Positions 4,300-7,364 of a stretch of 24,507 nucleotides of DNA are shown piece by piece (within the stretch, counting starts at the first letter, position 1; each line of letters starts with the position of its first letter). The position numbers were made by a program, and so were the translations under genes. The notes below the pieces were generated by a model. The model did not search any database. It worked only from the letters and a program-made list of their open reading frames with translations, and was not told where the DNA came from. This DNA is from Minisyncoccota bacterium (lineage in GTDB: Bacteria; Patescibacteriota; Minisyncoccia; Phycocordibacterales; SBAW01): positions 1-24,507 of the forward strand of contig DATCEW010000084.1 of assembly GCA_036509865.1 (NCBI GenBank). The letters run 5' to 3'.

Positions 4300-4308
4300 A
4301 ATAGCCAT

Positions 4309-4336
4309 ATTATATAGGCACGTTTAGTTTTGTCAA
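4309..4336 (-). promoter_or_regulatory. Consensus sigma70 promoter of the TrmB-like gene
   Basis: Minus strand TTGACA (4336-4331), N16, TATAAT (4314-4309); ATG 4299 lies 9 nt downstream. Confidence 0.8.
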
Positions 4337-4417
4337 ACAACATTTACAGAAATACGTAGCAAAATAGCCATAAAATGCCTTATTTTAAGTAGTATTTGTC
4401 AAACTATGTTTTGTATG

Positions 4418-4445
4418 TTGACATTATATTTTATTGGCGTATACT
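4418..4445 (+). promoter_or_regulatory. Near-consensus sigma70 promoter driving the accessory island
   Basis: TTGACA (4418-4423), N16, TATACT (4440-4445); predicted TSS about 4451-4452. Confidence 0.8.
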
Positions 4446-4451
4446 TTTGTC

Positions 4452-4901
4452 ATATCCTTATTGCGAGTACCGGAGGGATGCCGGAAAAGAGGAAAGAGGA
4501 TGGTCTCTGACAACAGAATAGGTGATAAGGAAAAACGCAGAACAATCTGTGCTTCGGCGCAAACTGCATCGAGTTGGGTTAATAACAGTAACCCCGAGAA
4601 TGTGCGTCTCCTATGAATTCGAGCTCGGCTCGCATAGGAAGACAGACGCACCCTCAAAAACCGAGTAGAACCTCGGCCTGTAACCCTCATCGCAATGGTG
4701 AGGTGCGGAATGGAGCTCCGCGGGTGTGCGCAGCCCAAAGTTGCTGGTGGCGAGATGTGGCGTACGCGTCGCATCACAAAAGCCAAACCAGAACAGCTCC
4801 GTGTTTTCTCCCCGACCAGCTCTCTGCGATGCAGATTGAGCGGTCGGGGATTCTATTCAACTCGCGAACAAGCTTGCGACTGTGCAAGAATTCGTGAGTT
4901 G
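4452..4901 (+). ncRNA. Large structured RNA / 5' leader of unknown family
   Basis: About ten stems found by eye, e.g. 4455-4464/4522-4531, UUCG hairpin 4548-4561, 4602-4651, 4744-4791, 4809-4850, 4858-4901. G-U wobbles are consistently on the + strand. No convincing CDS. Confidence 0.6.
4856..4901 (+). repeat. Island hairpin element, copy A
   Basis: TTCAACTCGCGAA...TTCGTGAGTTG, 11-bp stem 4858-4868/4891-4901, followed by AAGGAG at 4910-4915. Confidence 0.8.
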
Positions 4902-4921
4902 TTCGAATCAAGGAGATGGTC

Positions 4922-5287
4922 ATGGAAAAAATCCTCAACCTGACGCAACACGCCGCCACTGCCGAGCAAATCGCGGCCGGTGTCGTCGAACCTGCTGACA
5001 AGATTGTGGTGCAAGCGCTTCTCACGTTTGAGGAGTTGCCCACCGCAGGCGAAATCAAAAGACGCGCGAGGTCGCTCTCCGAGTTTGCAGCTACGAGCGG
5101 CTGCAAGACCGCGATGATCGGCGGTGCACCGTTCTTTATGGGGCCACTTGAATATGCGCTTGCGACGGCGGGGATAAAAGCCCTCTATGCGTTCAGCAGA
5201 CGCGAAACCGTCGAGGAAAAACTCCCCGATGGTGGTGTGAAGAAGACGCAAGTCTTCCGCCATGCCGGGTTCGTGTCGACCTTTTAA
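4922..5287 (+). CDS. Small Csx20/CARF-like protein, putative cyclic-oligoadenylate ring nuclease or binder
   Basis: ILNLTQH.AT.EQ, AMIGGAPF, and C-terminal G...LYAFSRRE.VEE..PDG.VKK..VFRH.GF, which resembles the Csx20 pattern as recalled (VY.TT.R.S.E...DG...K.S.FKH..F). SD AAGGAG; start 4922 (alternative 4916). Confidence 0.5.
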   Translation: MEKILNLTQHAATAEQIAAGVVEPADKIVVQALLTFEELPTAGEIKRRARSLSEFAATSGCKTAMIGGAPFFMGPLEYALATAGIKALYAFSRRETVEEKLPDGGVKKTQVFRHAGFVSTF

Positions 5288-5301
5288 AACGACACATGGT
5301 T

Positions 5302-5330
5302 AGGGCGAGCCAAAAATCGCCCTCTTTCTT
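5302..5330 (+). terminator. Terminator-like hairpin after the Csx20-like ORF
   Basis: AGGGCGA (5302-5308)/TCGCCCT (5317-5323) followed by the interrupted tract CTTTCTT. Confidence 0.45.
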
Positions 5331-5354
5331 CAACTCGCAAATGGTTGTGAGTTG
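5329..5354 (+). repeat. Island hairpin element, copy B (minimal)
   Basis: TTCAACTCGCAA-ATGG-TTGTGAGTTG, 10-bp stem 5331-5340/5345-5354, then GGAG at 5366-5369. Confidence 0.8.
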
Positions 5355-5375
5355 ATTGAGATTTTGGAGATGCCC

Positions 5376-5573
5376 ATGATGAATAGGCCCGCAACTGCGC
5401 TGGAGCAACTCCGGCAGCGGCAAGGAACGCAAACTCTAAAACGGCTCATCTACAGATGCGTCGGCCGAGAAGAGATCGCGCTTGCCGCGCGACGCTACCG
5501 GAGGTATCTTCCCAAGCTCGATTTCAGTCGAGACGATTGGAAAGATCAGATCCAAAACTTGCCCGATTCATAA
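5376..5573 (+). CDS. Small basic hypothetical protein (65 aa)
   Basis: GGAG 6 nt upstream of ATG 5376; flanked by elements B and C; no recognisable motif. Confidence 0.6.
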   Translation: MMNRPATALEQLRQRQGTQTLKRLIYRCVGREEIALAARRYRRYLPKLDFSRDDWKDQIQNLPDS

Positions 5574-5585
5574 TCGGGCCTCTTA

Positions 5586-5633
5586 TTCAGCACATGATGC
5601 ATATTGGCGAATTGGTCGCCACACCGTGTGCTG
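5586..5633 (+). repeat. Island hairpin element, copy C
   Basis: TTCAGCACATG...CGTGTGCTG, 9-bp stem 5588-5596/5625-5633, inner TGGCGA/TCGCCA stem, then AGGAG at 5636-5640. Confidence 0.75.
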
Positions 5634-5648
5634 CTAGGAGTTCTTACC

Positions 5649-6089
5649 ATGGAACACGAACGCCTTGCAGGAAAACCCTTCGTGCTCATTGAAACAAATG
5701 AGGAAGGGGCCCTACGCGTCATTGATATCGGCGCACACATCGCCGAGAAGTACGGCGACAAAACGCTTGGTGCTCTCTATGAGTTCGCATCGCGCCGCCG
5801 GATCGCTTTTGCGAAAGCGAAAAAAGCGATCATCAAACGCCTCGGCCGTAAGCCTGTCATGGGCTCGGACGAGTGGGCAAGCTCGGAAGAACACCGGGTG
5901 TTGCAAGAGGTTCCTGCTCTCGGCCTTAGTGGCACGCACATAAAGCGGGCCGGCCCTTTGGACATGAAATTGTCCGAATGGGTCAAGGGGTGGCATGGCG
6001 GTTGCCTCGGCAAGTATGACCGCGAGGTCATCAAGGCTCTCGTCGCAACAACGGGTGACGAGACGGCCGCGCTTTTATTGTCGAGTTAG
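5649..6089 (+). CDS. Hypothetical protein (146 aa)
   Basis: AGGAG 8 nt upstream of ATG 5649 (MEHERLAGK...). The ORF-track start at 5604 falls inside hairpin C. Confidence 0.7.
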   Translation: MEHERLAGKPFVLIETNEEGALRVIDIGAHIAEKYGDKTLGALYEFASRRRIAFAKAKKAIIKRLGRKPVMGSDEWASSEEHRVLQEVPALGLSGTHIKRAGPLDMKLSEWVKGWHGGCLGKYDREVIKALVATTGDETAALLLSS

Positions 6090-6099
6090 TCTCGGCATT

Positions 6100-6135
6100 G
6101 GCGAACGCATGTAGTTTACTTCTACCGCGTTCGCC
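6100..6135 (+). terminator. Strong hairpin after the 146-aa ORF (no U tract)
   Basis: Perfect 9-bp GGCGAACGC (6100-6108)/GCGTTCGCC (6127-6135) with inner GTAG/CTAC. Confidence 0.4.
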
Positions 6136-6141
6136 CCCTCA

Positions 6142-6187
6142 TTCAGCACATCGTCCACGCTGCGATCGTCGCAAGCTGGTGTGTTGA
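6142..6187 (+). repeat. Island hairpin element, copy D
   Basis: TTCAGCACATC...GGTGTGTTGA, 10-bp stem 6143-6152/6178-6187, then AGGAG at 6189-6193. Confidence 0.75.
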
Positions 6188-6201
6188 TAGGAGAAGACCA
6201 A

Positions 6202-6390
6202 ATGACCGAACTCGAGATTATCTGCGAGATCACCAAGATCATTCGGATCCGTGATTCTCGGGTGTCTCTTGTGGATGGAATTGCGCGTGCAAAGCGCGTG
6301 ATCGAGTCCCCTGAGGAGCTCGGGCTCCTCTGCAAAGAGACGTTCGAGTTTATTCGCGAGATCGAACGCAGAAACCGCACCGGGCGGTAA
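6202..6390 (+). CDS. Small hypothetical protein (62 aa)
   Basis: AGGAG 8 nt upstream of ATG 6202 (MTELEIICEITK...). Confidence 0.6.
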   Translation: MTELEIICEITKIIRIRDSRVSLVDGIARAKRVIESPEELGLLCKETFEFIREIERRNRTGR

Positions 6391-6535
6391 ACTCGGGACA
6401 TTCTTTTGCGGTCCAAACGCAAGAGAGACGCCAATTCTTTTTGGCTTGAGCGGGGATCCGAAAGGGCGAGACCGCAAAAAAGATGGGACAATCTCTGCCC
6501 ATACCAAGTGAGATGTTGTTCTTTAGGAGGATGCA

Positions 6536-6688
6536 ATGAAAATCACTCTGCAAACCGTGCGGCCCATCAATGTGGCCGCCAAGGCTCTCGCACAGGGGCA
6601 GTTTCGCCCGCAAATTGTGCGAGACAAGAAAAAGTATTCCCGCAAGGGACGCCAATCCTCGATGCGAAAATTCGAGGACTCTATTTAG
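6536..6688 (+). CDS. ArfA-like (alternative ribosome-rescue factor-like) basic peptide, 50 aa; not in the ORF track
   Basis: AGGAGG 5 nt upstream. MKITLQTVRPINVAAKALAQGQFRPQIVRDKKKYSRKGRQSSMRKFEDSI resembles the ArfA core N....L....FR..V...KK...Y.RK but lacks the full KGKGS motif. Confidence 0.55.
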   Translation: MKITLQTVRPINVAAKALAQGQFRPQIVRDKKKYSRKGRQSSMRKFEDSI

Positions 6689-6729
6689 CTCGCGAGCATG
6701 CTTGCAACAATGCAAGAGTTCGTTAGTTG
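6684..6729 (+). repeat. Island hairpin element, copy E (41/50 nt identical to copy A, ungapped)
   Basis: TTTAGCTCGCGAG...TTCGTTAGTTG, stem 6686-6696/6719-6729; overlaps the TAG stop of the ArfA-like ORF. Confidence 0.8.
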
Positions 6730-6735
6730 ATTGAG

Positions 6736-7122
6736 TCAACCAACCAATTTTGAGTTTTTTTCAAGCCACGCGGCTATATCTGCGATAGAAGTTTTTTCCA
6801 CCACAAAATGCACCATCGAATCCTCAATATCTTTTTGGTCAAAAAAGGTTTTATACTCATTTTGCTCGAGTATATACACCGCTGTTATAAACGCCGTACG
6901 TTTATTGGCGTCTACAAACACATGATTGCGCGCGAGGCTCTCGAGCGTTGCGGCTGCTTTAGTAAATAAGTTTGGGTACATCTCGGTGCCTCCAAACCCT
7001 GCATACGGTCGTGCGGTGCACATCTCTAAAGCACCGGCGTCACGCAAGCCGCTTGATCCGCCCGTTTGGCGCAACACCACCTCATGCAGGCGGATAATAT
7101 CCTCAGCAGTAGGGAAGGTCAT
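6736..7122 (-). CDS. doc: Doc/Fic-family type II toxin (death-on-curing)
   Basis: Doc motif NHVFVDANKRTA, N-terminal H....GG..G.RD.G.LE...ARP; 128 aa. Confidence 0.92.
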   Translation of the reverse strand: MTFPTAEDIIRLHEVVLRQTGGSSGLRDAGALEMCTARPYAGFGGTEMYPNLFTKAAATLESLARNHVFVDANKRTAFITAVYILEQNEYKTFFDQKDIEDSMVHFVVEKTSIADIAAWLEKNSKLVG

Positions 7123-7364
7123 TATTTGTCTTTGAGCGCCTCAAGTGCAGGGCGGTAACGCTCGACAGCCTCCTCGGCCCACGCCACGAGCTTTGCATTG
7201 CCGGCACTCTTTTTAGCGGCAGGGGCCTTTTTTTCAACAATAAAACGCCCAGCCTCTCTTGTTACAGAGATTATGTCACCCGCAAAAAAACCTTCCTCAC
7301 GTGCATCTTTTGCAGGGAGTACCACGCTTATAGAGCTGCCTACTTTGAGTATTTTTTGATCCAT
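7122..7364 (-). CDS. AbrB/MazE-fold antitoxin cognate to Doc
   Basis: KILKVGSSISVVLP...EEGF..GD.ISV AbrB pattern, C-terminal ERYRPALEALKD; TAATG stop/start overlap with doc. Confidence 0.88.
   Translation of the reverse strand: MDQKILKVGSSISVVLPAKDAREEGFFAGDIISVTREAGRFIVEKKAPAAKKSAGNAKLVAWAEEAVERYRPALEALKDK

Follow-up and report, generated by a model that had tools for sequence, protein, structure and literature searches.

Does a 50-residue reading frame of a Minisyncoccota bacterium encode a relative of the alternative ribosome-rescue factor ArfA, and could it, like E. coli arfA, be expressed from messages that lack a stop codon? The question arose from a sequence-only reading of the stretch of DNA analysed here (24,507 nt, hereafter the window), which had described a Shine-Dalgarno sequence, a short basic ORF, a hairpin within its last codons and a stop codon buried in a further structure. 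All of these elements were found as described. The Shine-Dalgarno sequence AGGAGG (6525-6530, plus strand) is read directly from the DNA and lies 5 nt upstream of the ATG at 6536, the ORF runs from 6536 to 6688 (plus strand) and ends with a TAG at 6686-6688, and the hairpin occupies 6656-6678. The 50-aa product has the C-terminus ...MRKFEDSI and a basic C-terminal half, in which 9 of the 17 residues from 29 to 45 are Lys or Arg.

The ORF is short and is overlapped by a longer frame (6406-6726), so it could be a chance open frame that is not translated. However, the Shine-Dalgarno sequence is strong and ideally spaced, and the peptide matches the Pfam family DUF7230 (PF23876) above its cut-off of 27 (31.4 bits, E 2e-7, residues 12-47; 30.3 bits when the genome is scanned with PF23876). 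Its core is moreover conserved across 141 homologous clusters. The Pfam match and these clusters contradict the chance-frame reading, which we consider extremely improbable; judged by this evidence, 6536-6688 is a real gene. An identical 50-aa protein with a precomputed PF23876 assignment was found in a public protein collection, so some pipeline had already called the gene.

To what, then, is the peptide related? An exhaustive profile search seeded with the peptide and its two closest relatives (E≤1e-3) recovered 141 cluster representatives, mostly of 35-90 aa, which share the core ...RN.aA.AL.dp.FR.RVVrdKK.Y(S/T)RKG(R/K). When a profile of 133 members was compared with all PDB chains, the six best matches were E. 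coli ArfA (E 6e-7 to 7e-6), and the first match to anything else followed at E 0.76. Alignment of the family with E. coli ArfA (MG1655) by hhalign gave a probability of 94.4% and an E-value of 8.7e-8, placing residues 10-50 onto ArfA residues 12-59, and BLASTP of the peptide against ArfA gave E 0.001. Among the 133 members, 84 match DUF7230 and 25 match the Pfam ArfA family (PF03889) directly, the best at 1.6e-8; one member (P0063) keeps the KKGKG motif of ArfA and is named ArfA in IMG. The proposed likeness to ArfA is thus supported at the level of the family profile and of hhalign, although PF03889 gave no match at E≤10 for the peptide itself, nor anywhere in the genome. The peptide had no match in NCBIfam, and in PHROGs only weak matches of unknown function. 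Small rescue factors that recruit release factors are thought to be hard to detect by sequence (PMC8012679). From the profile comparisons, we conclude that DUF7230 is a sister family of ArfA, and that the peptide is very probably an ArfA homologue. This link is drawn here; Pfam gives DUF7230 no function, and our literature search found no paper on DUF7230 and no account of ArfA relatives in CPR bacteria or phages.

In detail, the peptide resembles E. coli ArfA (PDB 5H5U, 5MDV, 5U4I, 5MGP) in its size, its hydrophobic A-x-L...F-R-x-x-V N-terminal half, its Y-x-R-K-G core and its basic tail, in addition to the significant profile-profile similarity. It keeps the core as Y34-S-R-K-G38, the basic tail and the A..L..F-R segment, which is the best-conserved part of the family and corresponds to the RF2 contact in ArfA. 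Unlike ArfA, it has no GKG: the earlier statement that the KGKGS motif is reduced was right, the change being a three-residue deletion (KK---KYSRKGR versus KKGKGSYMRKGK). The DP of the A-site segment has become QG (ALAQGQFR, against the family consensus ...ALADP.FR), and the position of the KH motif is taken by R39-Q40, KH being retained in other DUF7230 members (e.g. P0088, P0118). In E. coli ArfA, Pro23 touches A1492/A1493 in the decoding centre (bioRxiv 10.1101/091256). Off the ribosome, the peptide is expected to be disordered.

The host is a further point of difference from E. coli ArfA, since the peptide belongs to a tiny-genome, CPR-type bacterium, in which it is encoded in an accessory array. 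Sequences similar to the NusA of the assembly include Saccharimonadota clusters, which fits a CPR-type organism. A survey of more than 15,000 genomes found ArfA confined to gamma- and some beta-proteobacteria (PMC11633108). Members of the present family were found in metagenomes and on viral contigs (25 IMG/VR loci), and a few CPR-type genomes also have one. Within the genus, it is present in 5 of 79 other genomes, and among 401 genomes sampled from the phylum in only 1 to 2. The peptide gene is therefore accessory, and the same counts bear out the expectation that such a factor would be unusual for a CPR bacterium. A tblastn search of phages and plasmids with the peptide returned only marginal matches (E about 1-3); those in Xanthomonas and Listeria look like chance. 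One match led to an unannotated 48-aa ORF of Agrobacterium phage OLIVR5 (locus L010:1492-1638, plus strand; MT234342.1 about 97832-97978) that has the family core, NPVAKALASPHLRKQIVTSKKVYSRKKK, and is overlapped on the other strand by two CDSs annotated as hypothetical.

The partners that a factor of this type would need can be sought in the assembly, which comprises 562 kb and is 85% complete (genomes of the genus measure 0.5-1.3 Mb). It encodes RF1 and an RF2 with the SPF motif (contig C30), as well as RNase III, and a gene for RNase Y lies in the window. For ssrA and smpB, on which the proposed tmRNA-linked control bears, the outcome was divided. Neither was found in this incomplete assembly, in which ARAGORN detected no tmRNA, while both are present, and adjacent, in 4 of 4 same-genus carriers tested; SmpB is also present in 23 of 23 good-quality relatives. 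Because the two genes are adjacent in relatives, one unassembled locus would explain the loss of both, and their absence is best explained by the incompleteness of the assembly.

The 3′ end of the gene contains two adjoining structures. The first, termed H1, pairs TCCTCGA (6656-6662) with TCGAGGA (6672-6678) in a 7-bp stem with a 9-nt loop; it falls in codons 41-48, is terminator-like and abuts ‘box 1’ (CTCTATTTAGC, 6679-6689, plus strand), which contains the TAG stop. The second is a 61-nt imperfect hairpin (6677-6737, plus strand; ‘element E’ in the sequence-only reading), with 23 bp in four segments, that consists of box 1, an extended hairpin 2 and ‘box 2’ (GTTGATTGAG, 6726-6735, plus strand). 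In the minimum-energy fold, the TAG is base-paired in the 5′ arm of this long hairpin, which is of the size of an RNase III substrate. An approximately 20-bp hairpin near the end of the functional part is a feature shared with E. coli arfA, where it starts at W51/E52; in the peptide gene it starts at D48 (equivalent to ArfA A53), which is within about two aligned residues.

The region 6640-6745 folds with -35 kcal/mol, compared with -23.5 +/- 3.1 kcal/mol for shuffled sequences (z -3.76; 0 of 200 shuffles as good). For H1 alone the advantage over chance is modest (-9.9 kcal/mol, z -1.8; 12 of 200 shuffled sequences fold equally well). The case for the reality of H1 rests on conservation, its stem being retained in all 14 related loci of the close subfamily. 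In 13 of these, all seven pairs are Watson-Crick, and in one locus (L042) a double change has put a compensatory T..A in place of A..T. A rule-based terminator scan flags H1 as terminator-like, with the tail CTCTATTTA, but it also flags 13% of open frames as background, which is too loose for a clean statistic; the H1 tail CUCUAUUU is a poor U-tract. The leader upstream of the gene (6391-6535) shows no fold stronger than that of shuffled sequences (z -1.5), and its conservation is limited to L046 and, in part, L042. Within it, the intergenic stretch 6400-6497 is found at 95% identity or more in contigs of lake and aquatic metagenomes. On the window as a whole, Rfam gave no match and ARAGORN no tRNA or tmRNA.

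Five small co-oriented genes make up the accessory array (4418-6740), the peptide gene coming last, and comparison along the array indicates that its hairpins are a generic intergenic module rather than a peculiarity of the ArfA-like gene. The module is present after each gene of this array and of related arrays. It always lies on the coding strand and has a fixed order: a variable GC-rich H1 that ends exactly at box 1 (consensus CTCTATTCAGC), then hairpin 2, box 2, and the next Shine-Dalgarno sequence and ATG. The copy behind the peptide gene ends with box 2 at the 3′ end of the array. Four further copies lie on the plus strand of the window. Copy A (4810-4907) precedes ORF1 and comprises H1 at 4810-4849, box 1 at 4851-4861 and a box-2-like sequence at 4898-4907; copy B (5302-5360) has a terminator-like H1 at 5302-5323, a degenerate box 1 and box 2 at 5351-5360; in copies C (5561-5591) and D (6100-6147), H1 (5561-5579 and 6100-6135) is followed by CTCTTATTCAGC and CCCTCATTCAGC, respectively. 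Across 20 copies, a single helix comprises box 1, hairpin 2 and box 2, with 93% of cells paired and four compensatory pairs, compared with 20-42% in slid controls. The centre between the boxes varies from 15 to 46 nt. This length variation and the paired helix favour a folded nucleic acid over a two-box promoter. The promoter reading was rejected on account of this spacer, of a -10 element without the key A2, and because a start there would remove the Shine-Dalgarno sequence.

The array has one promoter, small co-oriented genes, imperfect hairpins in which the outer boxes are conserved while the centre varies, and mosaic content, in all of which it resembles integron attC cassettes and T4-type promoter-stem-loop cassettes. 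Compared by eye, its boxes ATTCAGC / GTTGATT agree with the attC core RYYYAAC / GTTRRRY at 6 of 7 positions each. Unlike integron cassettes, it has the extra upstream hairpin H1, and a search for an integron integrase found no recombinase in the window, the single tyrosine recombinase of the genome being encoded on another contig (C47). We also observed that box 2 contains TGA in two of three frames (window 6726-6735; L015, L042, L063), so that an ORF crossing the module in either of these frames ends in box 2, as in the same three loci. Box 2 thus works as an in-built stop signal that does not depend on the frame.

At the head of the array is a near-consensus sigma-70-type promoter (TTGACA-16-TATACT, 4418-4445, plus strand), and divergent from it lies a gene for a TrmB-family regulator (PF01978, 3484-4308, minus strand) whose product has 83-86% amino acid identity with those of L042, L043 and L046. 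These related metagenome contigs share the regulator and promoter region at 79-86% identity but have different cassettes behind it; the content of the array is mosaic between relatives. A compositional island was considered and rejected, the array having 53.8% GC and the genome 52.1%. Between regulator and array (4309-4445) are back-to-back consensus promoters, agreeing at 12 of 12 positions on the minus strand and 11 of 12 on the plus strand. Behind the promoter, some 470 nt (4446-4915) contain no convincing ORF and have no Rfam match; the first ~85 nt (to 4530) fall in a region (4301-4530) that is 79% conserved with L042 and L043, and other parts match L011 and L015. The first cassette protein (4916-5287, plus strand) has 72% identity to a protein of L015 (4712-5059) and a sub-threshold match to the CRISPR-associated Csx20 (27.5 bits, cut-off 70).

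Beyond the array, genes for a Doc toxin (Fic/DOC, E 1.9e-15) and a MazE/AbrB-type antitoxin (6739-7364, minus strand) converge on the ArfA-like gene, and no more than about 1 nt separates the Doc stop codon from the end of the last module. Toxins of the Doc family target translation, and their position next to a relative of a rescue factor may be of interest. In Logan contigs of the peat metagenome that is the probable source of the assembly, the sequence stops at 6664 and resumes at 6697, with a word depth of 5.3 on the array side and 8.5 on the Doc side. This break is compatible with an element that is repeated or polymorphic; perhaps only part of the population has the array, or the assembly may have been joined across a repeat at this point.

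If the module is generic, does the ArfA-like gene use it differently from its neighbours? It is the only gene of the array whose ORF runs through H1 and box 1. The other genes of these arrays have their stop codons 28-67 nt upstream of box 1, that is, before H1, with the exception of ORF2 of the window, whose stop codon falls within its own H1 loop, 9 nt ahead of box 1. In relatives, the ArfA-like ORF has no stop ahead of the hairpin module; its stop lies 29 to ~300 nt past box 1, and in most relatives none occurs until box 2 or far beyond. Past box 1, the ORFs of relatives diverge completely and reach total lengths of 58 to 110 or more residues with unconserved tails, which is a further likeness to ArfA, whose tails past the hairpin are likewise variable and dispensable. 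The H1 loop measures 8, 9 or 11 nt, and the lengths of 8 and 11 nt (L062, L063) shift the frame of box 1 so that it reads ...SRTLF... instead of ...FEDSI.... Since the frame of box 1 differs in these loci, the ‘...MRKFEDSI’ end is conserved as nucleotides, not as residues. A more distant homologue from the same genus (L059, G455:C2, minus strand of the locus), with the C-terminus ...YTRKGRPTEDRRTT, has a TGA stop within the 3′ arm of an 8-bp hairpin (GGAGGATC / GATCCTCC), a further case of a stop buried in a stem.

Comparable layouts are found outside this subfamily. In the DUF7230 lineages of L016, L018, L048, L049 and L051 (a Parcubacteria MAG), classical intrinsic terminators of unrelated sequence lie inside the ORF, ending 34-58 nt past the conserved Tyr codon; the tails beyond them are unconserved and often hydrophobic. 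Many other family members are short stop-terminated ORFs with no internal hairpin. The arrangement with an internal terminator matches that described for arfA and brfA (PMC8012679). BrfA of B. subtilis, which is regarded as independent in origin, is a small RF2-dependent rescue factor, and a Rho-independent terminator in its ORF, before the stop codon, gives rise to non-stop mRNA (PMC8012679). L018, L048, L049 and L051 share this terminator-in-ORF layout, and H1 with its U-rich box represents the same idea.

The window itself departs from its relatives in one respect. At box 1 it has TAG where most of them read CAG, a state that it shares with L056 (G449) and the divergent L064. The change preserves pairing in the long helix, replacing C-G by U-G. 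The TAG starts 8 nt past H1, and the exact RNA 3′ end therefore decides the outcome: a transcript ending 7-9 nt past the H1 stem would be without a complete stop codon. A full terminator would silence the downstream cassettes, so the module is at most a partial terminator or a processing site. The proposal of non-stop control thus fared differently in its parts. The lack of a stop before the module in relatives, the conservation of the module as nucleotides and the terminators inside the ORF elsewhere in the family speak for it, whereas the stop 8 nt past the hairpin in this allele speaks against it. For the subfamily as a whole, we regard non-stop, tmRNA-linked expression as an evenly balanced proposition on this comparative evidence, and for the present TAG allele as less likely than not. 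With an in-frame stop 8 nt past H1, non-stop control is not needed for making the peptide in this allele.

The explanation that we consider best overall, with modest confidence, is that the gene encodes an ArfA-type rescue peptide, carried as the last cassette of the array and having a non-stop design. From the homology to ArfA we infer RF2-dependent ribosome rescue as its function, which we hold to be somewhat probable. When a ribosome has stalled on reaching the 3′ end of a message, its empty mRNA channel would be sensed by the basic C-terminal half (residues 29-45), and the N-terminal half with its A-x-x-L...F-R pattern would recruit RF2, leading to peptide release. The array would be driven by the single strong promoter at 4418-4445 and punctuated by the repeated module. 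Transcripts ending in H1 or box 1 would have no stop codon; termination after H1, an RNase III cut in the box 1/box 2 helix, or trimming back to H1 could each produce such a 3′ end. As with E. coli arfA and B. subtilis brfA, productive translation of these messages would require saturation of tmRNA-SmpB. In the present allele, a C-to-T change would have created the TAG in box 1, such that read-through transcripts would yield the same 50-aa peptide by normal termination, and a message would be non-stop only if it ended at 6687 or earlier.

Two other accounts of a translated gene have to be weighed against this one. The peptide may be an ordinary, stop-terminated small ArfA-like protein with no link to tmRNA, the hairpins being a generic module (for partial termination, for processing or stabilising RNA, or for attC-like recombination) that the ORF overlaps at its 3′ end by compaction, as many cassette ORFs do. 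Several observations agree with this account: the TAG of the window precedes the bulk of the long hairpin and is also found in G449 and L064; the module stands behind every gene of this and related arrays; array content is mosaic between relatives; and ORF2 likewise stops inside its own hairpin. The boxes also resemble inverted core sites (ATTCAGC / GTTGATT) around a variable centre of 15-46 nt, but no integrase adjoins the array, and the one tyrosine recombinase of the genome is on C47. Nor does compaction alone readily fit the finding that only the ArfA-like ORF reads through H1, that the frame of most relatives stays open as far as box 2 or well past it, with unconserved tails of up to more than 100 aa, and that unrelated lineages of the family have true terminators at the corresponding place within the ORF. 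We thus regard the ordinary-gene account as somewhat unlikely.

The second account concerns function. The peptide could bind the mRNA channel without rescuing ribosomes, as a mobile-element product that blocks or modulates host translation or trans-translation, or that serves in anti-defence. The family is common on viral contigs (the 25 IMG/VR loci) and has a member in OLIVR5, it is sporadic within the genus, and the present copy has lost the DP and KH motifs. Moreover, ArfA-RF2 pairs are species-specific (PMC8012679). However, it is the A..L..F-R segment, the part that contacts RF2, that is best conserved in the family, and a non-stop design is sensible mainly for a rescue factor. A role other than rescue is thus quite improbable in our view, and RF2-dependent rescue by an ArfA-type peptide is the reading that we retain.

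The peptide can be classed as a member of the ArfA superfamily whose host range and genomic context are new and which has a stop-less design in a version of its own; such a design is already known from E. coli arfA and B. subtilis brfA. Through the link to ArfA, a Pfam family of unknown function gains a hypothesis for its function. The comparison of lineages indicates that control through the lack of a usable stop codon was either retained or invented anew, with hairpins that differ greatly, and suggests that self-regulating rescue designs extend beyond proteobacteria and include mobile elements and phages. If the rescue activity is true, the known range of RF2-dependent rescue would be widened, with phages and accessory arrays as carriers. 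A bolder, and in our judgement unlikely, extension is that DUF7230 peptides are rescue factors of phages and mobile elements which, made from built-in non-stop messages, would sense that host trans-translation is overwhelmed (e.g. when toxins or an RNase-based defence cleave mRNA) and would make ribosomes available to the element again. Were this so, ribosome rescue would be a traded accessory or counter-defence function, and CPR bacteria and their viruses would be among those that use the ArfA design.
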